Shown here piece after piece: positions 1 to 48,161 of a stretch of 48,161 nucleotides of DNA. Below the pieces are notes generated by a model. It saw only the letters and a list, made by a program, of their open reading frames with translations, did no database searches and had not been told where the DNA came from. The stretch lies in IMG/VR virus record IMGVR_UViG_3300009095_000021, positions 1 to 48,161 of that record; one strand, written 5' to 3'. Within the stretch, counting starts at the first letter, position 1; every line of letters begins with the position of its first letter. The stretch comes from a virus. Taxonomy: Duplodnaviria > Caudoviricetes. The translations under genes and the position numbers were made by a program.

Positions 1-123
1 TGAGCTGGCCCCGGCCAAGGTGCTGACCGGGTCGGTGTTGCAGTCACACGGCTTAACGTGCGCGTCGTAGCGGCTGTTAATGCCCGAGGCCAGCAGCGAC
101 CCCCCGGCAGAGTACAGCGCGCA
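1..123. repeat. Terminal overlap, exact copy of 48039-48161 (circular assembly overlap)
   Basis: Bases 1-123 match the last 123 bases exactly, and an ORF reads through the junction. Confidence 0.95.
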
Positions 124-210
124 TGTCACGACCGCCCGAGGGCAGAACCCAGGCTGATTAGCGCGGGCGCGCACCTCAGCCATTGCCTGTTCCAGCGACC
201 AAGCGCCCAT
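1..210 (-). CDS. dCMP/cytidine deaminase family protein, 5' part (continues across the junction to 47808; about 146 aa)
   Basis: Manual translation from ATG at 210: MGAWSLEQAMAEVRARANQPGFCPRAVVTCALYSAGGSLLASGINS..., in frame with the 47808..48056 ORF carrying HAE and PCxxC. Confidence 0.85.
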   Translation of the reverse strand, partial: MGAWSLEQAMAEVRARANQPGFCPRAVVTCALYSAGGSLLASGINSRYDAHVKPCDCNTDPVSTLAGASS

Positions 211-211
211 G

Positions 212-994
212 TTACCACGCCCCTTCGTTGCGCAGGCAGCGAATTGCACCCAGCCAGCCGTTGGCCTCGCTGAACTGAGGGCCGTCATAGTTGGGGCCGG
301 CGTGCTCAGTGACATACGCCTTAAGGATGGCATCAGCCTTAGGCGCTTCGCCGTTGAAGATATGCCCGCTGACCGTGTGATGATAGTACGCCCCAACGGC
401 GACCTGCAGCAAGTCCGCTACCTTTTCCTGCAGTCGGGCAAAGACGTACACGTCCTGACAGACCGTGGTGGTGTAGTTGTTGGAGCGCATGCTAACCGTC
501 ATATCCAGCGCGCCGTTGCGAACGCGGAAGTTGAAGGCGTAGGTACACATGTATTCGCAGTTGGTCGTGCCGGCGTGCAGCGCGTCTGCAACATGACGGT
601 CATCCGTGCCCAACATCATGATGCAGGCGCGGCGGCTGTCGGGGTTGCGTTGCAGCTCGCGCACCACAAACGGCACCTGCTCCAGAATGCGCGGCCCGTA
701 GGCGGTGCAAAGGATGTCGTTAAACATGGTGCCGAAGTTGCCGGCGTTGGGGTTGAGCGCCTTCATTTCTTCAGACACCGCTACTTTGCCTGACAAAATC
801 CAGTCGGCCATCAAGCGGCTGAACTCATGGCGAAACGCCCGCACTGGGTTGGTGACGGCGCGCTCATCGATATGGAAAAACGGCTGCAGTTTAAACGTGT
901 GGTTGATCAACTCCATATCAGCAGCAAGGCGCGCGTTGATCAGGTTTGCGTGGTACACGTCTTCCCATGCTGCACTAAGGGCTTGTACACTCAT
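212..994 (-). CDS. Divergent thymidylate synthase / dCMP hydroxymethylase superfamily protein
   Basis: AYGPRI, PDSRRA, catalytic YMCT, MRSNN...D and SGHIF motifs of the TS fold; Asp at the dUMP/dCMP specificity position. Confidence 0.85.
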   Translation of the reverse strand: MSVQALSAAWEDVYHANLINARLAADMELINHTFKLQPFFHIDERAVTNPVRAFRHEFSRLMADWILSGKVAVSEEMKALNPNAGNFGTMFNDILCTAYGPRILEQVPFVVRELQRNPDSRRACIMMLGTDDRHVADALHAGTTNCEYMCTYAFNFRVRNGALDMTVSMRSNNYTTTVCQDVYVFARLQEKVADLLQVAVGAYYHHTVSGHIFNGEAPKADAILKAYVTEHAGPNYDGPQFSEANGWLGAIRCLRNEGAW

Positions 995-1938
995 TGCGCG
1001 GCCTCCTTTGTGAACGCTATGGCGTAGTGGCTAAAAGCCTCAATGTAGCCGCTGGGCTTGAACGGCACCGCTTGAACCTCAAACGCCACCACCTCTTTTT
1101 CCAACGTGTGGCCGGCTTCGGTCATGGCCGCTAAGCGCCATTCCAGGCGCAGGCCGGGAAACTGCTCTGCCACGATAAGAACGCCACCCACCTTCAGCAT
1201 GCGGTAGGCGTCTGCAATCATGCGGGCGCGGTCTTCGGCACCTTTGCAGTGCAGAATTTCGCTCATGATGACCATATCGAACAGGTTGTCCAGGTCTTCG
1301 GTCGGGTTGTTTTCGGTGCCCAGCGCATCACCCTCGCGCACCGTGATGCCCCAGGCGTCGGCAAGCTCGCGCGGGTTGCCCGGCGCTTTGTCAATGAGCC
1401 AGCCAATGGTGTTGGGGTTCAGTTCGCAGCAGCGTTTAACAAACGCGCCGTTGCCGCCGCAGTAGTCCAACACCAGCGGGTCAGCAACATGCTTAACCTG
1501 CAACGCCGCCCAGTTCAGCAGTTCAGGCAGGTAGGCGTTGGAGTAGTTTTCCAGGCCGTTGCGCAGCTGGGCGTACATGGCGGGGTCGGTAGCGTTGCCG
1601 TTGAGCTGGTGCCCAATCATGGCAAGCTCATACTCCAGCAGCGCGGCGCACTCTGCCACGTTGACACCCTGCTTAGTGAGCTGAACGCCTTTTTGGTCGG
1701 GCGTTGCTACTAGCAGACCCATGCGCGCCCAGGCGGCGGCAACAGCGTCAACAGCACCGGGCGTTGCAGTTTCCCAAACCTTGTCACGGCTGCCCTTGGC
1801 CAGTGCCACCAACGTCCAAAGCGCTTCCAGCATGCCGTACAGCGATGGGCCGTGCTCGCTTACAGGATAGCGAAACTCCATGCCGGTCTTGAAAATACTC
1901 TGCGCCTGTTGAAGGGCAGCGGGTTTTGTCGGTTGCAT
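991..1938 (-). CDS. Class I SAM-dependent methyltransferase (O-methyltransferase-like, N-terminal helical domain)
   Basis: VLDYCGGNG (motif I), WLIDK, EGDAL, FDMVIMSEILH, AYRMLKVGGVLIVAE; no DNA-MTase PC or NPPY/DPPY motif. Confidence 0.85.
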   Translation of the reverse strand: MQPTKPAALQQAQSIFKTGMEFRYPVSEHGPSLYGMLEALWTLVALAKGSRDKVWETATPGAVDAVAAAWARMGLLVATPDQKGVQLTKQGVNVAECAALLEYELAMIGHQLNGNATDPAMYAQLRNGLENYSNAYLPELLNWAALQVKHVADPLVLDYCGGNGAFVKRCCELNPNTIGWLIDKAPGNPRELADAWGITVREGDALGTENNPTEDLDNLFDMVIMSEILHCKGAEDRARMIADAYRMLKVGGVLIVAEQFPGLRLEWRLAAMTEAGHTLEKEVVAFEVQAVPFKPSGYIEAFSHYAIAFTKEAAQ

Positions 1939-1940
1939 GA

Positions 1941-3248
1941 TTACACCTTTGCTTTCAAGTGAGGGAGGACAAATTGACTGATATACAGGTCAATGTCAAG
2001 GGTGCTGGAGTGGTGCATGTCGTACACTTCAACCACGCCTTGCGGCATGAGCACCGGCTCTGCGCCCTGGAACAGCGCTACAAAGTTTTCATACACAGCG
2101 CTGGCGTTTTCCAGGTCAGGGCCGTGCAGCTCTTTGCGCGTTTGACACATGCGCGTGTAGTTTTCCAGCCATGCCGCGTTATCACTCGGCAGGGCAAAGA
2201 GGTTCAACGCCGCTGCGCCTTCGGTCATCGTCTTCCAGTGGATGACCTGTTCCATATCGTACTCGCCAGCACGGTACACGTTGGAGTACACAGGGTGCGA
2301 CATCCAAGGGCGCTCCAGCACCACAACGCAATGCTCAGCCAGCGCCTGGGCGTAGGCAATGGCGTGGGCGCGGTAGTTGTGCATAACGCGCGCCAGCTGA
2401 GGCGACCAAGTCAGGTGGATGTACTGGCCACCCGTGACTTCAACGATACGCTTGGCCAAGGTGGTCTTGCCGCTTGCGTCGGGGCCGTCAATGGTGATCA
2501 GGCCGCAAATGCTGGCCGTATCGATGTAGACTTCTTCGCCATGAATGAACATGGGCACGCTACCCTCAGGCACATGCGGCTTGTACGGGCCTTTGCCCAC
2601 AAGGTCGCCCAGGTACGGCGGCAGCCAGTCGTCAGGCTTGGTAATTTCCATCATGTGCTCAACGTCGTGGCCTTGCTCTTTAAGCAGGGCGCGGCGGCGT
2701 TGTTTGGCCGGGTCAACGTTTTTGGCCATGTTGGCAGCATGCACGCGGCGGACGGCTTCGTCAATGTCAAAGCCATGCAGCAGCGCAGTAGCGGTGAAGG
2801 CATGCAGGGCCAGGGCCAGGGCGCGGTACTGCAAGTCCAGGTCGCCGGTTGCTGCAACCGTTTCAAAGCGCGTTACAGCGCTGCTGTGCAGCTGCAGACG
2901 CAGGGCGCGTTCGGCAGGTGATAGCATGCGCGGCGGGCCGTCATACAATACCTGTTCGCCAACGATGTTAAGCTTTTCAAAGTGCAGGCCCATGCGGTGG
3001 GCGGTGCCAGCCAAGAAAATCAGTTCGTCGGCCAGTCCGTCCAACATGTCTTCCAGGTCGGTAGCGTCGGCGTATTCCTTGGCTTCTTCGCGATGGCATT
3101 CCAGGCGAAACGCCAGTTCTGCCGAGGTCAGGTTGCGCTTTGGGCCGTCATAGGCCAAGCCAAACTTGGTATGGAACTGTTCGAGCATCTGATGAATGCT
3201 CATGGCTTCAAACGGTGACGTGTCGTACACCAAATACGTGGCTTTCAT
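1941..3248 (-). CDS. MazG-like all-alpha NTP pyrophosphatase fused to dNMP (thymidylate-like) kinase
   Basis: N-terminal EEAKEY...DGLADEL...VHAANMAK...KPDDW; C-terminal ITIDGPDASGKTT P-loop and LERPW. Confidence 0.8.
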   Translation of the reverse strand: MKATYLVYDTSPFEAMSIHQMLEQFHTKFGLAYDGPKRNLTSAELAFRLECHREEAKEYADATDLEDMLDGLADELIFLAGTAHRMGLHFEKLNIVGEQVLYDGPPRMLSPAERALRLQLHSSAVTRFETVAATGDLDLQYRALALALHAFTATALLHGFDIDEAVRRVHAANMAKNVDPAKQRRRALLKEQGHDVEHMMEITKPDDWLPPYLGDLVGKGPYKPHVPEGSVPMFIHGEEVYIDTASICGLITIDGPDASGKTTLAKRIVEVTGGQYIHLTWSPQLARVMHNYRAHAIAYAQALAEHCVVVLERPWMSHPVYSNVYRAGEYDMEQVIHWKTMTEGAAALNLFALPSDNAAWLENYTRMCQTRKELHGPDLENASAVYENFVALFQGAEPVLMPQGVVEVYDMHHSSTLDIDLYISQFVLPHLKAKV

Positions 3249-3758: not shown

Positions 3759-4790
3759 TTAGAGCGCAAGCTTGTCGGCTGGAGCTTTGGCTGACTTGGT
3801 CGCAGGCTTCTTAGCCGGTGCTTTGGCAGCGGGCTTTGCAGCAGCTTTGGCACCGGGCTTTGCAGCGGCCTTGGCGGCAGGCTTCGGCAGCGGCTTTGCA
3901 GCAGCTTTAGCAGCGGGCTTGGCCGGGGCTTTGACTGGAGCAGCAGCGGCCTTTTCAGCGTGCTCTTTCCAGTATTCGCCATGCGGGCCTTTCTTGGCCA
4001 GGGCCAGGTTGGCCAGTGCCCATTCGCGGTGCTCAGTGGAGCCGACCGCAGCAAATTTTGCTTCGATCTTTTCTTCCACGAACAGTTCGCGGCGGTACTT
4101 GGTGCAGTGCTTCTTGTCAGCGGCGGACTCCGGGAAGTCCTTGTGGACAGCGGCCAACACTTCAGCGTCGGTTTTGCCCTTGATGATCAGCGCGCGGATC
4201 AGGTCTTTTGCGGTTTTGCGTTCGGCGGTCTTGGCCATGATAGTGATTCCTGTTTCGTTGATTAGGGTCAGCAAAGCTGCTATTGGTAGCGACAAATGGT
4301 CGCCGCGTTTCATACCGTTACCAAGGTCGCCAGCCAGTCGAATGACAACCATGGGGCCGAGTTTAGAGGTGTCAGTGGAAGTTGTCAAGGCATCAGTGCC
4401 CGCAACGTGTTCGTCAGCCGGCAGACTGTCGGCCAGTGCTTGCGCGTTTAGTTGCGAGCACAGCAGAGCAGCGGCCTTTTCAGACTTTTTGGAGCCGGCC
4501 AGCTCGCCACCTGCGCGGCTGACAATGGCGTACTCCGACTTGATCTTTTCGATGTAAAACGGTTCGCCCTTGCAGCGAGTGCAGGCACCGCCCTCAATAG
4601 GCAGCGGTGGAAGGTGGCTATCACCCCAGACCTTAACCCCGTTCGGCAGCTTGGGGGTGCTTACACGGTCAGTGCAGAGCGCGCCGTTGCAATAACCACA
4701 AGTGGCCAGTTCAAAAAGGGTTTGGGTCGGTGCGTGAAAATGGCTTTGCGGCGTGGCTTTCCAGTCGTTGACGTATTCAATGGTGCTCAT
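3759..4790 (-). CDS. Cys-rich (CxxC x2) protein with C-terminal histone H1/AlgP-like KPAA repeats; probable internal start at 4238
   Basis: GGAG RBS before ATG 4790; AGGA RBS before in-frame ATG 4238; C-terminus KPAAKAAAKP repeats. Confidence 0.7.
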   Translation of the reverse strand: MSTIEYVNDWKATPQSHFHAPTQTLFELATCGYCNGALCTDRVSTPKLPNGVKVWGDSHLPPLPIEGGACTRCKGEPFYIEKIKSEYAIVSRAGGELAGSKKSEKAAALLCSQLNAQALADSLPADEHVAGTDALTTSTDTSKLGPMVVIRLAGDLGNGMKRGDHLSLPIAALLTLINETGITIMAKTAERKTAKDLIRALIIKGKTDAEVLAAVHKDFPESAADKKHCTKYRRELFVEEKIEAKFAAVGSTEHREWALANLALAKKGPHGEYWKEHAEKAAAAPVKAPAKPAAKAAAKPLPKPAAKAAAKPGAKAAAKPAAKAPAKKPATKSAKAPADKLAL

Positions 4791-4865: not shown

Positions 4866-4917
4866 CCCCCGCGAATAGACCGAATCGCTATTAAACACGA
4901 CTGTGTAATTCGCTTAT

Positions 4918-5071
4918 GGAATTTGCAGCGGTTTCTCTTACACGGCGTTTAACAGACCTTGACCAAAATCCTTTGGCGTCTTCTCTTAAACGGCGTGTAA
5001 GAAACCTTGCCGCAAATCCTTTGGCGTCTTCTCTTAAACGGCGTGTAAGAAACCTTGCCGCAAATCCTTTG
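4918..5071. repeat. 48-bp tandem repeat (2 perfect copies, 1 degenerate) containing an imperfect palindrome
   Basis: Unit AAATCCTTTGGCGTCTTCTCTTAAACGGCGTGTAAGAAACCTTGCCGC at 4966 and 5014, partial at 5062. Confidence 0.9.
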
Positions 5072-6810: not shown

Positions 6811-7007
6811 GCAGGACGCCTCCAGTTAAACCGCTTGAGCGCCGCGTTCATGCGTCGGGCCAGCTTAATCTCTGCTTTGACTTCTGGCAGTAGGTAACGC
6901 ACACAACCCGCGTTAAAGCGCATACCAACAAGGCGCGCTGGCACCCACCAGCCTTTACACATTCGCATACGTGGCTTGTTCATTTCCTGTACCTCGGGCC
7001 TTCCCAA
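6807..7007 (-). CDS. Small hypothetical protein (likely start ATG 6983)
   Basis: Fills the gap between polymerase and VRR-NUC with overlapping start/stop codons. Confidence 0.5.
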   Translation of the reverse strand: MGRPEVQEMNKPRMRMCKGWWVPARLVGMRFNAGCVRYLLPEVKAEIKLARRMNAALKRFNWRRPA

Positions 7008-9097
7008 CCTTCACTAGTCACCGGCAAATCACCGGCCCATTTTGGCAGCGTACATAGCAGCATCTCAAAATCCTTAAGCGAACCAAAGTCTTCGTCATCC
7101 TCACTGGCCGCTTCGTCGTGTACCGTCATGATCAGGTAGTAGCCTACGCAGTCCAGCAGCAACATACCAAACGCCATGAGGTCACGGGCCACACCCTGGG
7201 TCACGTTTTCGGTCAGCTTCCCGCCGTAGGTGGACAGTTCACCCCATTTGTGTGTCTTGCTGTGGCAGCCTTGGTAAAACAGCTCATAGCTCAGCTCGCC
7301 CCACTTGAAACTTTCGCGCACAACCGGGAACGGGTAGCCTGTTGTGTGCCCTGATGGGAAGCGGCAGAGTAGTATAGGCATTTTACCGTAGCGTGTCATC
7401 TTGAACTTAATGCCAAGATAGTTTGTTACACGGCCAGGGAAGCGTACCGCCTCAATGGCTACTGCCTCCAGCTTCTTCCAGAGCTTGGGCACCAGCGGGA
7501 AGCGCTTGCGGTACGTCTGAATGGATTTCTTAGCCGTGACCCGGTCGATGATGATGTTCGCCACCTCTTCGCAGCGGGTCTTAAACTTCTCATCACCCAT
7601 GCCGTAGCCTGCGCCCAGAATGGTTTCCTTACCCAGCGGCCGTTCATCTGATTCCTTGTCCAGCGTGTGCATGGGCACACCGTAGATTGCTGCCGCCATG
7701 TCCAGATAAATGTCTTCGCCGCGCCGGAAAATGTCCAACGCCCGCTGATCACCTGCTAGCCAGAGCAGCACGCGTGCCTCAATTGCCGAGTAGTCCGCTG
7801 ATTTCAGGTGCTTGTCCAGCATGGCGCAGATGACAGCGCGCAGCGAGCTGGTGAGGATTTCCATGGAATTGGCCAGCCACCATGTGTCCTTGCCTTTGGC
7901 CTGCCGCTCTTTCTTGTCGCGGGCCTCAATGTCAGCGGCCAGCTTGTCCAGCGCCTTGACGCAGCCCTGCTTAATGACGTTGAGCACGTCAACATAATCG
8001 ACCCACTTGGGCAGCTTCGGCCGGGGGAAGTTCTGTATCTGAATGCCCTTGCCACCCCACCGGCCAGTACGGGCCTTGTGGTAGTTCAGCAACTCGTGCA
8101 CCCGGCCGTCACTGGCAACGAACGACTTCATAGCCCCGAACTTGGCAACCGAGGAAGAGCCGGCAACCTTGTACAGCTGCAGCATGCGCCGCACCTTGGG
8201 CGGCACCGTGGTTTTGCGCAGGTACACGTCAACCGTTTTGCCTTGTAAGTTCGGCAGGATAACGCCCTGTGATGCCACCCAGGCTTTGACCTTCGCCCGT
8301 TGGGTGCACTTCTGGAACATGCCGCCGCTAAGCGCCGCCGCTTCAGCGTTGTACACCAGCTTGATTTGCGCCACTAGCTTGTCAGCCGCGTTGACCGCTG
8401 CCATGTCCAGGTACAGACCGCGCCAGTTCATGCGCATGGTCAGCCATGCAATGTTCTGCTCAAACGCCGGTAGGCCAGGCAGGATATTGTCAATCTCCAC
8501 CTCGGCTTTGGTGTCGCGAACGCAGTATACCTTAAAGTCTTCCCAATCCTGCGGGAAATCCCATGGCTCATTGAACCTGCCTTTGGCGTTGGGCTTGCAA
8601 AACAGCTTGATCAGGCGCTTGCCGTTGCCGTCCTTGAGGTTGGCCACCTGGAGCACCTCAGCGGCTTCCTCCAAGTTGGCAGGCAGCGCCAGGGCTTTGC
8701 ACTTGTCGGCAACGTCAAGCGTTTGCTCAATCTCAACGTCTGGCCAGCCCATGTGCGGTACGCACACATGCTTCCAGATGCAGTATTCAAAGTAGCTGTT
8801 AAACGCATTAAGAGCCGCGCCGCTGTTAACCAGCGTGAAAAGCGCGTGCGGGGGTGCGTCGCCGGGCAGCCAGAGCTTTGTGTCCTTTGGGTCGCCAGTC
8901 AGGCAGTAGGACATCATCAGCACGCGGGTGGAACTGTGCTGGCTGTACTTGTACGCGCCGACCGTGGGCAGGTCAAGCTTGCTGCGCGTCTCAAAGTCGA
9001 TTGTTACACGCCGCGCGCCTTGGCGTTGGACAGCCAAGGCCATGCGTGTTTTGGCTAGGTTGATTGCCTCAACCTGCCGAGGGTTGTATGAACTCAT
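6980..9097 (-). CDS. Family A DNA polymerase with 3'-5' exonuclease
   Basis: DFETRS ExoI, ARTGRW, motif A DYSAIEARV, motif B RPLGKETILGAGYG, motif C VHDE. Confidence 0.95.
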   Translation of the reverse strand: MSSYNPRQVEAINLAKTRMALAVQRQGARRVTIDFETRSKLDLPTVGAYKYSQHSSTRVLMMSYCLTGDPKDTKLWLPGDAPPHALFTLVNSGAALNAFNSYFEYCIWKHVCVPHMGWPDVEIEQTLDVADKCKALALPANLEEAAEVLQVANLKDGNGKRLIKLFCKPNAKGRFNEPWDFPQDWEDFKVYCVRDTKAEVEIDNILPGLPAFEQNIAWLTMRMNWRGLYLDMAAVNAADKLVAQIKLVYNAEAAALSGGMFQKCTQRAKVKAWVASQGVILPNLQGKTVDVYLRKTTVPPKVRRMLQLYKVAGSSSVAKFGAMKSFVASDGRVHELLNYHKARTGRWGGKGIQIQNFPRPKLPKWVDYVDVLNVIKQGCVKALDKLAADIEARDKKERQAKGKDTWWLANSMEILTSSLRAVICAMLDKHLKSADYSAIEARVLLWLAGDQRALDIFRRGEDIYLDMAAAIYGVPMHTLDKESDERPLGKETILGAGYGMGDEKFKTRCEEVANIIIDRVTAKKSIQTYRKRFPLVPKLWKKLEAVAIEAVRFPGRVTNYLGIKFKMTRYGKMPILLCRFPSGHTTGYPFPVVRESFKWGELSYELFYQGCHSKTHKWGELSTYGGKLTENVTQGVARDLMAFGMLLLDCVGYYLIMTVHDEAASEDDEDFGSLKDFEMLLCTLPKWAGDLPVTSEGWEGPRYRK

Positions 9098-18396: not shown

Positions 18397-19041
18397 ATGA
18401 AACTTGAAATTCGCGACGCTATGCCGCTGGCCCGCTACGCTGTCAAAGACCTTGACGGTGTGCCTGAGTCGCCATGGCTGCACTGGGGCACATTTGTTGA
18501 ATGCGCTGAGTACATTCAAGAGCACAACCCTAAAGACCTAACCAACAAAATGTGCGACGCGCTCAACGCCCAGTCTGGCCCAACGCATATGGGTGAGCCG
18601 GTGTTGCGCCGTGTAGGCACGCACCCCGCCCTGGCTGCGCCGTATGGTGTTGAGACCGCTAAGCGGCTTGTAAACTACTATCGTATAGAGTTCCCTGAGG
18701 TCTACGCTGTGTTCCAAGCTGCTGAAATAAGCGGCCGCTGCCCGCCACCTAAAGAAGCCCCGGCCCGCTCGCTGGAGGCACATTTGCTGCAGGTGGAGTT
18801 GAACAGCACCGGGCCAGAGAACCCGTTGCGCCAAAGAAAGATTAACCGCTTTGAGCTTGTTGCGCTAGAATGGTGGCGAGCCCGCCGCCCTATGGACTGG
18901 AGTTCGGTGGAGCATGTGATGAACCCCACCATCAACACCCACACCGCCGCTGAAGCCAAAATGGCGGCCATGGCTGCAGAGCTGTTCATGCAGGCGTGCG
19001 AAGTGGGCCGACTGACCTTTGAAGCCCCGGTGCAGCTATGA
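18397..19041 (+). CDS. Hypothetical protein
   Basis: 214 aa ORF with GGAG RBS; stop overlaps the denV start. Confidence 0.65.
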   Translation: MKLEIRDAMPLARYAVKDLDGVPESPWLHWGTFVECAEYIQEHNPKDLTNKMCDALNAQSGPTHMGEPVLRRVGTHPALAAPYGVETAKRLVNYYRIEFPEVYAVFQAAEISGRCPPPKEAPARSLEAHLLQVELNSTGPENPLRQRKINRFELVALEWWRARRPMDWSSVEHVMNPTINTHTAAEAKMAAMAAELFMQACEVGRLTFEAPVQL

Positions 19042-19601
19042 CCCGTATCAATACCATTGACCCCACCCTGTTGACCAACCAATGGCTGGCAGCCGAGTAC
19101 CGCGAACTGCCCCGTGTACTAAATGCAGTAGCGCGCAACCTGGGCGAAGACGTTAAGGTTGAAGCTCAGGTGCCACCCACCTACCGCATGGGCCAGGGCC
19201 ATGTGACCTTCTTTGTGGACAAGCTGTTGTACCTGTACAAACGCCATCAGGTGTTGTCAGCTGAAATGGTGTTCCGCGCTGCCACTACTGGGCGCAAGCT
19301 GGAGCTGTCCATTGACTGCCTTGAGGTGTACACCCAAATTGCCGCCAAGCGCCCCGACCTGTGTAAGGATTGGACACCAACGGCCGACGACCACTTTACC
19401 AACTTGGCCCGGCTGTGTGAGCGGTGGAACGACGCCAAGCGCCCGCCCCGCCTTAACGCCCAGGTGATGAGCAGCGAGGCTGATGCAATAAACTGGGTGA
19501 CAACCGTAGCGATTAAGCACAAACTCTACCCGGCGCGAGCGCTACAGCTCATGCTAAACTCACTGCGCGCCGCTGGGCGTATAACCACATTGGAGCAATG
19601 A
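19038..19601 (+). CDS. denV: Pyrimidine-dimer DNA glycosylase / endonuclease V
   Basis: MTRIN...LAAEYRELPRV...GQGHVTFFVDKLLYL..R...EM, matching the T4 DenV signature (catalytic Thr2 and Glu23). Confidence 0.9.
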   Translation: MTRINTIDPTLLTNQWLAAEYRELPRVLNAVARNLGEDVKVEAQVPPTYRMGQGHVTFFVDKLLYLYKRHQVLSAEMVFRAATTGRKLELSIDCLEVYTQIAAKRPDLCKDWTPTADDHFTNLARLCERWNDAKRPPRLNAQVMSSEADAINWVTTVAIKHKLYPARALQLMLNSLRAAGRITTLEQ

Positions 19602-19861
19602 CTATGGAAGCACTGTTAATTGGCGCTGTTGTGGCGTCGATCTTTATCGCCGGGGTGTATACGCTGTTCAGGACTGCCCTGCCAGCGTCCTATGACGAAG
19701 GCTACCACTACGGCATGAGCATGGTAAGCCACCCGGCTGACCGCGCTGAAGCTGAGGCTGTCGCTAACGAAGGCGACGGTGACTTTGAGCTGGGCGTTCG
19801 CGCCGCCTTGGACGACTACCCGCGCGGCCTGCCGGGCGACACCCTGAGGGATCAAGAATGA
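19598..19861 (+). CDS. Hypothetical protein with N-terminal TM segment
   Basis: ATGA overlaps on both sides. Confidence 0.6.
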   Translation: MTMEALLIGAVVASIFIAGVYTLFRTALPASYDEGYHYGMSMVSHPADRAEAEAVANEGDGDFELGVRAALDDYPRGLPGDTLRDQE

Positions 19862-20190
19862 GAAAGCAATCTGTTGTGCTGTACGGCCCTCAGGGTTGTG
19901 GCAAGACCGTCAATGGTGCTGCCATCGCCAAAGCGCTTGGGCTGAAGGCCGTGGTGGAGTTGGACGAAGTAAGCCGCGACAACATGCCTAAGGCGCGTGG
20001 CTCGCTGTACCTGACCTGCCGCTCGCGCGAAGAGCTGCTGCACTATGAAAAGCTGGGCTTGCGGCTCATGGCTTATGACGCTGCCATCCGCCTGCCAGGG
20101 TTTAAGCGCTTAACCTGCCCCGAACTCGCTGTCGCCACGGGCGCTACACTGGACGTGTTGGCCGCACTGCCCACCCGCAAAACAGACTGA
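19858..20190 (+). CDS. Small P-loop NTPase/kinase-like protein
   Basis: VVLYGPQGCGKT Walker A and VVELDE. Confidence 0.7.
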   Translation: MRKQSVVLYGPQGCGKTVNGAAIAKALGLKAVVELDEVSRDNMPKARGSLYLTCRSREELLHYEKLGLRLMAYDAAIRLPGFKRLTCPELAVATGATLDVLAALPTRKTD

Positions 20191-20234
20191 CCGCCTTATA
20201 CTACGCCCTTCAATACCACCCTGGAGCAACCGCA

Positions 20235-20714
20235 ATGAAGAACACCCTTATCTGTGACCTTGACGGCACACTGGCCTTGGACGACCACCGCCGCCCTCTT
20301 ATTCAGTCGCACGGCTGGAAAGCCTACTTTGACGCGTGTGTGCATGACACGCTGAACTACCCTACCGCCGCGTTTTTGGGCATGTGGCAAGAAGGCCATG
20401 AAAACGCCACCGTCATTCTGACCGGTCGTTGCGAAAGCCAGCGCGCTGTAACTGAGGCGTGGCTTAAACATCACGGCGTACACTACGACCACCTGCTTAT
20501 GCGCCCTGCTGACAGCTATGACCCGCTGGCCGTGTGCGAAGATACCACTGATGGCAAATGGACTAAGGACGAAGAGGTCAAGCTTGCCATGATACGCCAG
20601 CTGGACTTGCGCCCCGAAAACGTCATCTGCTGCCTGGACGACCGCGACCGCATGGTGGTATTCTGGCGTGAGCTGGGCTTTGACTGCTGGCAAGTCCGGC
20701 CGGGGGCGTTTTAA
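20235..20714 (+). CDS. HAD-family phosphatase (T4 PNKP 3'-phosphatase domain-like)
   Basis: ICDLDGTLA, ILTGR, LLMR, LDDR motifs. Confidence 0.85.
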   Translation: MKNTLICDLDGTLALDDHRRPLIQSHGWKAYFDACVHDTLNYPTAAFLGMWQEGHENATVILTGRCESQRAVTEAWLKHHGVHYDHLLMRPADSYDPLAVCEDTTDGKWTKDEEVKLAMIRQLDLRPENVICCLDDRDRMVVFWRELGFDCWQVRPGAF

Positions 20715-45215: not shown

Positions 45216-45995
45216 ATGCCAGCACTTAGCAAACCCACCCTCGGGATCGTCTGGGCTCAAGCGGGCTTAGCCAACCCCTATGACGATCTTAAGCAGGCTC
45301 AGGGCTTCATTCCGGAAATCCCCGACTACGACAATTTCAACTGGCTGATGCAGCAGTTTAGTCAGATGAACAACTACCTGAACGAACAAGGTATCGGGGA
45401 TTACTCGGCAACGACCACCTACTGGCTGGGCAGTATCGTCAAAGACCCTGCTACCAAACAGCTGTACCAGTCGCAGGATGACGACAACCTGGGCAACGCC
45501 CTCAGCGACCCAGCGTTTTGGAGCAACGAATTTGTTGGCGGGGGCATCCGCTGGAGCACCGAAACCGCCAACTTTAACGCTGAAGCCGGGCGCGGTTACT
45601 TACTGGACGGCGGCCTTGTGGCCACTTTGCCGCTGGCCCCTAGCGACGGTGACGAAATCGACTTTGCCGACTACATGCGCGAATGGGGTGCTACACCTTC
45701 AACCGTAGCAGGCAACGGCAAGAACATTGAAGGCTCACCGTCCTACAGCTTGCGCCAAAACGGCTCCATGGTTCGTATGGTGTTCTCCACCGGAACTGAT
45801 GACTGGCAGGTCATCACCGTGGCGCATGAAAGCCCACACCTGGGGTTGAACTACCAAATTCGCACCAACCCGCAGATCATTAACGAGAACCTTACCATTG
45901 CAGCGACCGACAACGGCGGCAGCTTTGGCCCCATGACCATTGCCATAGGGTCTACTGTGACTGTAAGCCCTGGCGCGACCTGGAGTATTGTGTAA
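45216..45995 (+). CDS. Tail fibre protein (proximal part)
   Basis: WAQAG...FNWL baseplate-anchor N-terminus; TLPLAPSDGDEI module; C-terminal GPMTIAIGSTVTVSPGATWSIV. Confidence 0.75.
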   Translation: MPALSKPTLGIVWAQAGLANPYDDLKQAQGFIPEIPDYDNFNWLMQQFSQMNNYLNEQGIGDYSATTTYWLGSIVKDPATKQLYQSQDDDNLGNALSDPAFWSNEFVGGGIRWSTETANFNAEAGRGYLLDGGLVATLPLAPSDGDEIDFADYMREWGATPSTVAGNGKNIEGSPSYSLRQNGSMVRMVFSTGTDDWQVITVAHESPHLGLNYQIRTNPQIINENLTIAATDNGGSFGPMTIAIGSTVTVSPGATWSIV

Positions 45996-46387
45996 TGAGC
46001 ACATTGCGAGCAAACAACCTTACGCGCGCAGGCGGTAGTGGGATACCGGATTTAGGCGGCGTCGCTGCCAGCCGCCTTTTGCCAAGTGCTTGGGTGAACT
46101 TTAACGGCACGGGTGTTGTGGCTATTCGTGACCAACAGAACGTATCGTCAATTACCGATAACGGCGTTGGTGACTACACGGTAAACTTCACCACCCCTAT
46201 GGCTAACGCCAATTACAGCGCAGTACCAGTTTTTACTGATACTGTCATTGCCTCATGGGCGGCTGCGGTTACTCGCGCTAACGTACTTACTACTTCTGTG
46301 CGCGTTCAGCAATTGGGTTTCACTGGTTCAACAGTAGCAACTGACGGTGCCAATTGCAATCTAATAGTCTTCGGGGGCCAAGCATGA
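45995..46387 (+). CDS. Tail fibre tip-like protein, paralogue 1
   Basis: AWVNFNG...NVSSITDNGVGDYTVNFTTPMANANY. Confidence 0.7.
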   Translation: MSTLRANNLTRAGGSGIPDLGGVAASRLLPSAWVNFNGTGVVAIRDQQNVSSITDNGVGDYTVNFTTPMANANYSAVPVFTDTVIASWAAAVTRANVLTTSVRVQQLGFTGSTVATDGANCNLIVFGGQA

Positions 46388-46776
46388 GCACTTTAAAAGC
46401 CAACACCATCTTGGCGGCCAGCGGCCTTGCTGCCGACCCGGTGGCCATTCCAGGCTTGGACAAGCGCTTTGCCACGGCCTGGGTGAACTTTAACGGCCTG
46501 GGCGTCGTGGCTATTCGCAGCGCCTACAACGTTGCGAGCATCACCGATAACGGCGTGGGCGACTACACGGTAAACTTTACGACCCCGATGGCCAACGCCA
46601 ATTACGCACCGTCGTTTGCAGGACAACGCAATGTGGCGCTTGGCTCCCCCGACTCGGTTGTTGGTATCAACGGGGCACCGACCATTAACGGGCTGCGGGT
46701 TATCTGCAGTAACGGTATCGGTGGGTTGGAAGATTTTACAATTGTCAGCGCCCATATCATGGGGGGCCAAGCATGA
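46384..46776 (+). CDS. Tail fibre tip-like protein, paralogue 2
   Basis: Same core motif; ATGA overlap. Confidence 0.7.
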   Translation: MSTLKANTILAASGLAADPVAIPGLDKRFATAWVNFNGLGVVAIRSAYNVASITDNGVGDYTVNFTTPMANANYAPSFAGQRNVALGSPDSVVGINGAPTINGLRVICSNGIGGLEDFTIVSAHIMGGQA

Positions 46777-47141
46777 GCAGCCTTAATGTAAACGCCATTA
46801 ACGGCGTGGATGTTCAGAACCTCGCAAGCAAGGTGGCCCGCGCCTGGGTCAACTTTAACGGCGTGGGTGTTGTCGCAATTCGCAAAGCGTTAAACGTGTC
46901 GTCCATTACCGACAATGGCACGGGGCTTTTTGTCGTCAATTTTGCCACGCCCATGCCCGACGCGAATTTTGTAGGGGTGGGCAACTCTTCCAACTCTTCT
47001 GGCCATGGGGCTGCACTGTTGATAGACTCAGCAGTTACGTCTGTCGTAGCGCCTACTATTAACAGCATGGCCATCGTGCTGCACGCCTCCGGTCTCGGCG
47101 TGCAAGACAACCTGTACGTCAATATGGCTTTCTTTGATTGA
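46773..47141 (+). CDS. Tail fibre tip-like protein, paralogue 3
   Basis: Same core motif; ATGA overlap. Confidence 0.7.
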   Translation: MSSLNVNAINGVDVQNLASKVARAWVNFNGVGVVAIRKALNVSSITDNGTGLFVVNFATPMPDANFVGVGNSSNSSGHGAALLIDSAVTSVVAPTINSMAIVLHASGLGVQDNLYVNMAFFD

Positions 47142-47766: not shown

Positions 47767-47796
47767 GAAAAAGCCCCTCACTGGAGGGGCTTTTTA
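47767..47796. terminator. Bidirectional Rho-independent terminator
   Basis: AAAAAGCCCCTC-ACTG-GAGGGGCTTTTT between the convergent tail operon and deaminase gene. Confidence 0.85.
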
Positions 47797-47807: not shown

Positions 47808-48161
47808 TTAATCCATCCAACGCCAAATACGCCCTTCGGCTTTCCAGACGGCTTCAACCCCGTCGCGGTCGGGCCAGTCGCGCGACACGGCCAGCACTTG
47901 CACCGGGCTGGCCAGCAGCGAAACCAAACACGACTTGCAAGGCGCGCGGCTGACAACGGCGGTGTGGAGCTTAGACCACCCGCCCGTGCCAGCAGCCAGC
48001 AGCAGCGCCGTTATTTCAGCGTGCTGCGCTAGGCAAGTTGAGCTGGCCCCGGCCAAGGTGCTGACCGGGTCGGTGTTGCAGTCACACGGCTTAACGTGCG
48101 CGTCGTAGCGGCTGTTAATGCCCGAGGCCAGCAGCGACCCCCCGGCAGAGTACAGCGCGCA
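47808..48161 (-). CDS. dCMP/cytidine deaminase family protein, 3' part (starts at 210 across the junction)
   Basis: CLAQHAEITALL...SRAPCKSC, the zinc-dependent deaminase HxE and PCxxC motifs. Confidence 0.85.
   Translation of the reverse strand, partial: CALYSAGGSLLASGINSRYDAHVKPCDCNTDPVSTLAGASSTCLAQHAEITALLLAAGTGGWSKLHTAVVSRAPCKSCLVSLLASPVQVLAVSRDWPDRDGVEAVWKAEGRIWRWMD
48039..48161. repeat. Terminal overlap, copy of 1-123
   Basis: Exact sequence identity. Confidence 0.95.

Follow-up and report, generated by a model that had tools for sequence, protein, structure and literature searches.

Described relatives and the operon of the window

Among described systems, the closest to the one presented here are the pathways of 5-hydroxydeoxycytidine monophosphate (5hodCMP) synthases, which are homologues of thymidylate synthase (TS) represented by RB69 gp48, DLP3 gp80, RL38J1 gp216 and HY126 AfhB (PDB 9IQC, 9IQU). 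RB69 gp48 and DLP3 gp80 convert deoxycytidine monophosphate (dCMP) to 5hodCMP; in the case of gp48 the oxygen comes from O2 and flavin has been shown, and nine further homologues with the D169N exchange, RL38J1 included, all gave 5-hydroxydeoxycytidine (Lee et al. 2026, PMC13326640). The phages with these pathways (155-175 kb) glycosylate 5-hydroxycytosine in DNA with arabinose or hexoses. A second system is the 5-methylcytosine (5mC) module of Xp12 and PaMx74, with a TS homologue carrying N177D, a deaminase and a PRA-PH pyrophosphatase. The bacimethrin cluster BcmA-D likewise combines a TS homologue, an S-adenosylmethionine (SAM) O-methyltransferase and a kinase on a cytosine derivative, but it is an antimetabolite pathway via hydroxymethyl-CMP and the free base, unlike a phage deoxynucleoside triphosphate (dNTP) pathway. 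In tRNA, the xo5U pathway begins with TrhP or TrhO, after which TrmR converts 5-hydroxyuridine to 5-methoxyuridine (PMC6158493). Here we describe a four-gene operon that pairs a TS homologue with a small-molecule methyltransferase (MTase) in IMG/VR record IMGVR_UViG_3300009095_000021, positions 1-48,161 (the window, by which we mean this whole stretch of 48,161 nt).

The window represents a complete phage contig of circular length 48,038, whose ends carry a 123-nt direct repeat (positions 48039-48161 duplicate 1-123). Its operon consists of four coupled minus-strand open reading frames (ORFs), separated in gene order by a 2-nt gap, a 4-nt overlap and a 1-nt gap; both the coordinates and the spacing agree with an original prediction made from the sequence alone. 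That prediction also had the deaminase reading through the contig junction to 47808, and we find it to be a protein of 146 aa, in frame and without an internal stop. The genes of the predicted pathway are the following:

1941-3248, minus strand: pyrophosphatase-kinase fusion, 435 aa (PF01503, PHROG 671/761)
991-1938, minus strand: SAM methyltransferase, 315 aa (Methyltransf_2 fold, model, conserved residues)
212-994, minus strand: TS homologue, 260 aa (dCMP 5-hydroxylase signature)
1-210, minus strand: deaminase, 5' part, in frame with the 3' part over the terminal repeat
47808-48161, minus strand: deaminase, 3' part, with the HAE...PCxxC zinc motif intact
6980-9097, minus strand: family A DNA polymerase (PF00476, 1e-19), upstream of the operon on the same strand

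The identical four-gene order recurs in loci L001, L002, L003 and L017, so this arrangement is not due to chance. We consider it probable that this system O-methylates a 5-hydroxypyrimidine, and there is about an even chance that 5-methoxycytosine is present in the phage DNA, partially or in a form that does not block restriction, with or without some 5-methoxyuracil. These and the other degrees of probability given below are our judgement and were not computed.

The TS homologue and its methyltransferase partner

The TS homologue matches the Pfam Thymidylat_synt family (3e-9) and lies far below the NCBIfam cut-offs. When aligned with E. coli ThyA, T4 gp42, RB69 gp48 and RL38J1 gp216, its C150 corresponds to C146 (ThyA numbering), E147 to L143E, N173 to D169N and D181 to N177D, so that it departs from canonical ThyA at D169 and N177. 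N173 aligns with D169 of the E. coli enzyme and with the Asn of RB69 gp48 and RL38J1 gp216, whereas Asp169 is kept in T4 gp42, MilA, Xp12, PaMx74 and AMA1; L143E is also present in hydroxymethylases. All four are invariant across the family (41 of 41 rows). A structural model (predicted local distance difference test, pLDDT, 96) retrieved MilA (1.6e-15) and HY126 AfhB (9iqc, 8e-15, root-mean-square deviation 3.0; also 9iqu), with ThyA and T4 gp42 only at about 1e-9. In a tree of 27 rows, among them 18 MTase-linked TS rows and three glycosyltransferase-cluster rows but not PaMx74, the MTase-linked proteins share a branch with RB69 gp48, RL38J1 gp216 and WSPA (support 81/91, not starred); ThyA, Xp12, AMA1, YuA and T4 gp42 fall outside it. 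Because of the D169N signature, the fold neighbours and the tree placement, the TS homologue, which carries the signature of the flavin/O2 enzymes, is most likely a dCMP 5-hydroxylase (5hodCMP synthase), an enzyme type already known.

The likeness to the 5hodCMP pathways thus covers D169N, N177D, L143E, C146 and the TS branch, and it extends to a related adjacent P-loop kinase and, in one MTase locus, to a U32 gene related to RB69 gp50. The differences are that TS identity is 26-32%, that the phages are of 35-54 kb, and that here a small-molecule MTase and a deaminase are found and no glycosyltransferase match; neither glycosyltransferase nor NDP-sugar genes had a Pfam or PHROG match among 57 neighbouring proteins or 17+52+25 window ORFs, some of which are unannotated.

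The partnership of MTase and TS was followed in 28 loci, which yielded 21 distinct ones after leaving out the window's own contig (L039), duplicates (L031, L040, L041), two loci without a profile match (L045, L046) and L013, set aside as outside the family with a weak MTase match (3e-9) and no TS. The TS gene lies directly downstream of the MTase gene on the same strand in 18 of the 21 (17 of 20 without L017, which came from a TS query); of the remaining loci, the contigs of L036 and L042 end inside the MTase gene and L025 is without TS. The pairing extends over distant phages, as shown by a GC content between 0.28 and 0.63 and by unlike replication modules. Position 169 of the MTase-linked TS proteins is Asn in 16 and His in two, with Asp in none, and all 18 have Asp at position 177. 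The two His proteins (L038:2984-3703 and L043:4775-5518) form a well-supported pair in the tree, and D169H would be an active-site variant. As indirect evidence, for six of nine close MTase homologues the longest source contig equals in size that of a TS homologue. Of the 19 loci that have a hydroxylase candidate, 13 (L025 included) carry the deaminase next to the module.

The MTase itself matches Methyltransf_2/25/11 in Pfam, with PF00891 above the cut-off, and has the Methyltransf_2 layout of an N-terminal dimerisation part, a Rossmann SAM domain and a conserved His. The top folds for its model (pLDDT 85) are full-length, dimeric small-molecule methyltransferases: the tyrosine O-methyltransferase MfnG (Z 23.3), 3mcz (22.9) and ASMT (22.1). 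The family conserves Y122, R126, D158, E227, H230, E258 and R268 (each in 73-75 of 76 rows); H230 (74 of 76) lines up with the His of 'LHDW', presumably the catalytic base. In comparison with the Methyltransf_2 O-methyltransferases MfnG, ASMT, DnrK and MmcR, 270-280 residues align at Z 21-23 and the D-x-G-G-G SAM motif and the conserved His are shared, but identity is only 13-16% and the window family has phage-specific motifs, Y..LR.GL and W-R268, which may bind the nucleotide phosphate. Like the tRNA xo5U pathway, the operon would combine a predicted C5 hydroxylation (O2- or prephenate-dependent) with SAM O-methylation; unlike there, the substrate would not be tRNA, and TrmR is absent from the top 50 folds of the window MTase, as is any DNA MTase. 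Based on sequence and model, the enzyme is likely a 5-hydroxypyrimidine nucleotide O-methyltransferase.

In a 50%-clustered library, the MTase family counts 114 representatives at E≤1e-10, a number that falls to 35 at 1e-30; some rows near the E≤1e-10 end are generic MTases. No full-length homologue turned up among 50,697 phage records in six tblastn queries (five were blank and one gave a weak partial match, 35% cover, E 1e-4), a genome-contig scan gave two 25-residue matches only, neither of them matched by the family profile, and a single-sequence viral scan gave none. A viral structure library returned generic MTases only (TM ≤0.49) for the model, and a single-sequence PDB search was uninformative. 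The DNA C5 methyltransferase domain PF00145 occurs in none of five complete module-bearing genomes.

Locus L025 has the gene order dUTPase, U32 protein, kinase-like ORF, MTase, deaminase. The U32 protein (L025:1994-3100, genome G001) is 49% identical to RB69 gp50 (L007:6493-7662). It matches UbiU and TrhP weakly and has no PDB sequence match; we take TrhP and RlhA to be members of the U32 family. Both of these are prephenate-dependent pyrimidine C5 hydroxylases (PMC13602947), and RB69 gp50 is encoded in the hydroxycytosine cluster (PMC13326640). The L025 contig is only 35% complete and its fragment has no TS match, so displacement of TS by the U32 protein is likely but not proven. The U32 protein is a candidate O2-independent dCMP hydroxylase of a second family, and if it has this activity, gp50 in arabinosyl-hydroxycytosine phages would also be explained. 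That the MTase stands beside hydroxylases of two unrelated families suggests a 5-hydroxypyrimidine as its substrate.

The fusion protein (PF01503 3e-5, PHROG 671 2e-19, PHROG 761 7e-8) comprises an all-alpha pyrophosphatase of the DR2231/PRA-PH type (residues ~1-220) and, from about residue 245, a P-loop deoxynucleoside monophosphate (dNMP) kinase, whose Pfam P-loop matches are weak and below cut-off; we predict a dNTP pyrophosphatase joined to a dNMP kinase. The pyrophosphatase orthologue of L017 matches DR2231 in PDB (1.7e-6) and, in a 6-protein set, the PRA-PH proteins beside the 5mC synthases of Xp12 (2e-18), PaMx74 (6e-15) and AMA1 (1e-15). DR2231-type enzymes cleave dUTP among other dNTPs (PMC5122711), and a dCTPase is favoured here because the nearest tested relatives adjoin the Xp12 and PaMx74 synthases. 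Of a 25-protein set, the kinase best matches those of the WSPA (4e-7) and RB69 (gp45, 6e-5) hydroxycytosine clusters. The deaminase matches PF00383 (dCMP_cyt_deam_1) at 9e-5, below cut-off, on a 117-aa part, and PHROG 174 at 3e-7; for its orthologues in L001 and L017, the best match is the deaminase gene product of L025, the U32 locus (2e-11, 3e-13). The window holds genes for a putative dCTPase, a kinase and a polymerase, with substrates that are predicted. Contigs that carry modified cytosine are enriched for clusters combining TS, deaminase, PRA-PH and PolA, and certain deaminases of this kind select 5-substituted dCTP (PMC8670742, bioRxiv 2024.12.05.627091). With Xp12 and PaMx74 the window shares the chassis of PolA, SNF2 helicase, pyrophosphatase, TS and deaminase, including a closely related pyrophosphatase; unlike here, their TS retains Asp169 and is accompanied by DHFR, no O-methyltransferase is present, and GC-only sites, purged in the window's clade, are kept.

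Other architectures were observed around the module. Genes of DUF6378 or DUF3310 adjoin it where no P-loop kinase is seen (L012:5670-5966, L028:2526-2789, L029:3640-3903, L032:1250-1534), and DUF3310 also occurs in L033 and L034; these genes, which we liken to T7 gp1.7, may be the kinases. TS is fused to MazG in L012 and to DUF3310 in L033, and the kinase of L038 has a weak C-terminal UDG-like match (E 0.005).

Taken in order, the TS homologue would convert dCMP and O2 to 5hodCMP, the chemistry shown in its homologues; the MTase would then O-methylate the free nucleotide with SAM to 5-methoxy-dCMP; the fused kinase would phosphorylate the modified dNMP while the pyrophosphatase trims competing dCTP and/or dUTP; and the phage polymerase would incorporate the product, with the deaminase supplying dUMP to the host thymidylate synthase. 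O-methylation before replication would mask the lesion-like 5-hydroxycytosine, which the glycosylating phages cover later with a sugar coat. The resulting 5-methoxycytosine would probably replace only part of the cytosine, or leave many host restriction enzymes unblocked. The original prediction of a pre-replicative pyrimidine substitution with an unusual small-molecule O-methyltransferase is supported.

Restriction-site avoidance and competing readings

It is important to consider the observations that weigh against 5-methoxycytosine as a DNA base. His replaces Asn at position 169 in the two loci mentioned, no P-loop kinase match is found among the scanned ORFs of genomes G005 (28) and G006 (31), and the fold list of the MTase also includes N- and C-methyltransferases and one hydroxylase (Fur6, MrsA, RosA, RdmB), so that the fold alone leaves the acceptor atom unfixed. 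A further concern comes from restriction sites, which we assessed by counting GC-only 6-bp palindromes at ≤15% of expectation and by the overall ratio of observed to expected sites (O/E). The window is devoid of GGCGCC (46 expected), CCGCGG (28), GGGCCC (18), CCCGGG (11) and GGWCC (81). All five clade genomes examined are short of GC-only palindromes (O/E 0.53, 0.49, 0.42, 0.30, 0.02): the window has lost 4 of 8 (O/E 0.53), G002 3 of 8, G003 4 of 8, G004 6 of 8 and G007 6 of 7 (O/E 0.02). In contrast, none of eight palindromes is lost in the 5mC phages Xp12 (O/E 1.00) and PaMx74 (0.96) or in AMA1 (1.01). Phages phiKMV, Chi and YuA, which we take to be controls of the unmodified type, show O/E 0.50-0.54 with 4-5 of 8 lost. 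Relatives are not alike in the sites they have lost (GGCGCC 0/35/46 and CGGCCG 36/0/2 in window/G003/G004), which argues that selection went on with the operon in place. Further lineage-specific losses are of the Type II kind: CTCGT occurs twice in the window against 45 expected, and G005 is without GATC and CCGG (CCGG O/E 0.0, CGCG 0.18), SPO1 being likewise without CGCG and GGCC. The exceptions are RL38J1, a C-modified phage with some GC-site depletion (1 of 2 sites, O/E 0.28), and G006 and G001, with little avoidance.

Relaxed avoidance of C-containing Type II sites, as expected of full cytosine-substitution phages (T4, Xp12, PaMx74), is thus not found in this clade; in coliphages, Rusinov et al. 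(PMC6286503) give 2.4% against 55.8% of sites avoided with and without hydroxymethylase. Since the clade purges C-containing sites as unmodified phages do, and unlike 5mC phages, a full cytosine shield is disfavoured, in a test that has few controls and by which T-modified and unmodified DNA are not separable. Three arrangements fit the avoidance: replacement may be partial or depend on O2, the new base may leave Type II enzymes unblocked, or the product may be diverted to 5-methoxy-dU in place of T. A side result concerns Achromobacter phage AMA1 (L061:24876-27070), whose GC content and chassis are as in the clade; since it combines an Xp12-type TS module (TS motif, deaminase and PRA-PH) with no GC-site avoidance, it is likely a 5mC phage, its modification being inferred.

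The third arrangement, a deoxyuridine alternative already raised by the original prediction, gains weight from these data. In its strict form the deaminase would turn the product into 5-methoxy-dUMP, 5-methoxyuracil would replace thymine, cytosine would stay normal and dUTP or dTTP would be removed. The avoidance resembles that of T-modified or unmodified phages, with the losses of G005 recalling SPO1 and the coliphage contrast of Rusinov et al. pointing the same way; the deaminase is adjacent in the 13 of 19 loci; modification-selective deaminases are known beside dCMP-type TS genes (bioRxiv 2024.12.05.627091); a trimeric dUTPase lies inside the cluster in L025, L033 and L034; and each of G002-G006 has a single TS-family gene. 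On the other hand, the closest relatives of the pyrophosphatase belong to full-5mC phages, the kinase is similar to the ones found in hydroxycytosine clusters, no deaminase is seen beside the module in L028, L029, L032, L033 or L043, and the avoidance test, blind to T-modification, also has the exceptions of RL38J1, G006 and G001. We regard replacement of thymine alone as unlikely; the wider proposal, in which hydroxylation, O-methylation and deamination of dCMP yield a folate-free 5-methoxyuracil for thymine, possibly alongside 5-methoxycytosine, is a slightly better but still tentative prospect.

It is improbable that the TS homologue makes 5hodCMP while the MTase acts otherwise, methylating 5-hydroxycytosine once it is in DNA, methylating N4 or C6, or transferring another alkyl group. 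The fold family covers diverse chemistry, action that is partial or follows replication would agree with the site avoidance, and in known 5-hydroxycytosine phages the capping happens on DNA (PMC13326640); however, small-molecule enzymes with a closed pocket are the nearest folds and no DNA MTase is in the top 50, tRNA offers the O-methylation precedent of TrmR (PMC6158493), and a methyl group on C6 would disfavour normal base geometry. More doubtful still is a product that barely enters DNA, the cluster rewiring nucleotide pools or making a decoy nucleotide against host defences: the avoidance is as in unmodified phages and the scanned ORFs of G005 include neither a polymerase nor a P-loop kinase, but kinase and pyrophosphatase are fused and co-transcribed, the polymerase lies upstream, and such clusters are enriched in modified-cytosine contigs (PMC8670742, bioRxiv 2024.12.05.627091). 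Least credible are two options of the original prediction, O-methylation of 5-hydroxymethyl-dCMP to 5-methoxymethyl-dC and a SAM-dependent, folate-free 5-methyl-dCMP: although the hydroxymethylase MilA is the top PDB match by sequence and fold and L143E is common to hydroxymethylases, MilA also tops the structural list for proven hydroxylases (PMC13326640 Table 1), hydroxymethylases and the Xp12 and PaMx74 5mC synthases (Xp12 on another TS branch) keep an Asp169 found in 0 of 18 MTase-linked genes, the nine D169N homologues gave 5-hydroxydeoxycytidine, and in the L025 fragment the MTase adjoins a U32 protein without TS. Of that prediction, the 5-hydroxy to 5-methoxy branch is supported, and 5-methoxycytosine, partial or non-blocking, is our preferred reading.

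Neighbouring genes and wider meaning

Elsewhere, the window encodes an SNF2 helicase, a primase and contractile-tail structural genes, and its polymerase has closest cultured relatives at only 36-40% identity. One further element borders the operon:

47768-47795, no strand assigned: GC-rich hairpin with A and T tracts at its sides, read from the sequence

It sits between the converging deaminase and tail-fibre-assembly genes and is likely the operon terminator; a terminator scan found none and left it unflagged. Between helicase and operon, positions 3759-4790 encode a conserved Lys/Ala-rich protein, also present in L001-L003 and L017 and without a Pfam match, which is possibly DNA-binding. 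A stretch of about 45 nt is repeated (two to three copies) in reverse frames at 4891-5070, between the helicase and the next gene, and is possibly regulatory. Split polynucleotide kinase (P-loop) and HAD phosphatase genes at 19858-20714 suggest RNA or DNA end repair. A DenV-type pyrimidine-dimer glycosylase is found in two module-bearing phages (window 19038-19601; L057:8937-9335 of G006), and three short tandem paralogues at 45995-47141 all match tail-fibre family PHROG 11355.

Our literature search, which did not cover most subscription papers, found no description of a 5-methoxy DNA base or of the MTase partner, and looking up the sequence gave nothing either. The available text and supplement of PMC13326640, to which figure text possibly does not belong, mention neither methyltransferase nor methoxy, and the supplement gives no IMG/VR identifiers; one of the nine D169N homologues tested there may belong to the MTase-linked family. 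The available parts of PMC12783734, PMC7824862 and PMC12838424 hold nothing further on either subject. What is known, then, is the TS-fold dCMP 5-hydroxylase; what is new is not the hydroxylase but the capping enzyme, a family of small-molecule O-methyltransferase fold beside it, together with the predicted new base.

If our interpretation is correct, 5-methoxycytosine and/or 5-methoxyuracil would join the natural DNA bases, and a widespread MTase family of uncultured phages would cap 5-hydroxypyrimidine before replication, a sugar-free route beside the arabinose and hexose systems (2025-2026). Were thymine the base replaced, DNA would gain a further natural letter, and there would be a new route to a thymidylate surrogate that can start from either of two unrelated hydroxylases (the flavin TS-fold enzyme or U32). 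For the U32 gene of RB69-type clusters a definite function can be predicted, that of a second dCMP hydroxylase, and the enzymes might serve as a source of methoxy-dNTPs. Finally, the coexistence of a modification operon with strong site avoidance poses a testable question: which base is changed, and which defence was countered.

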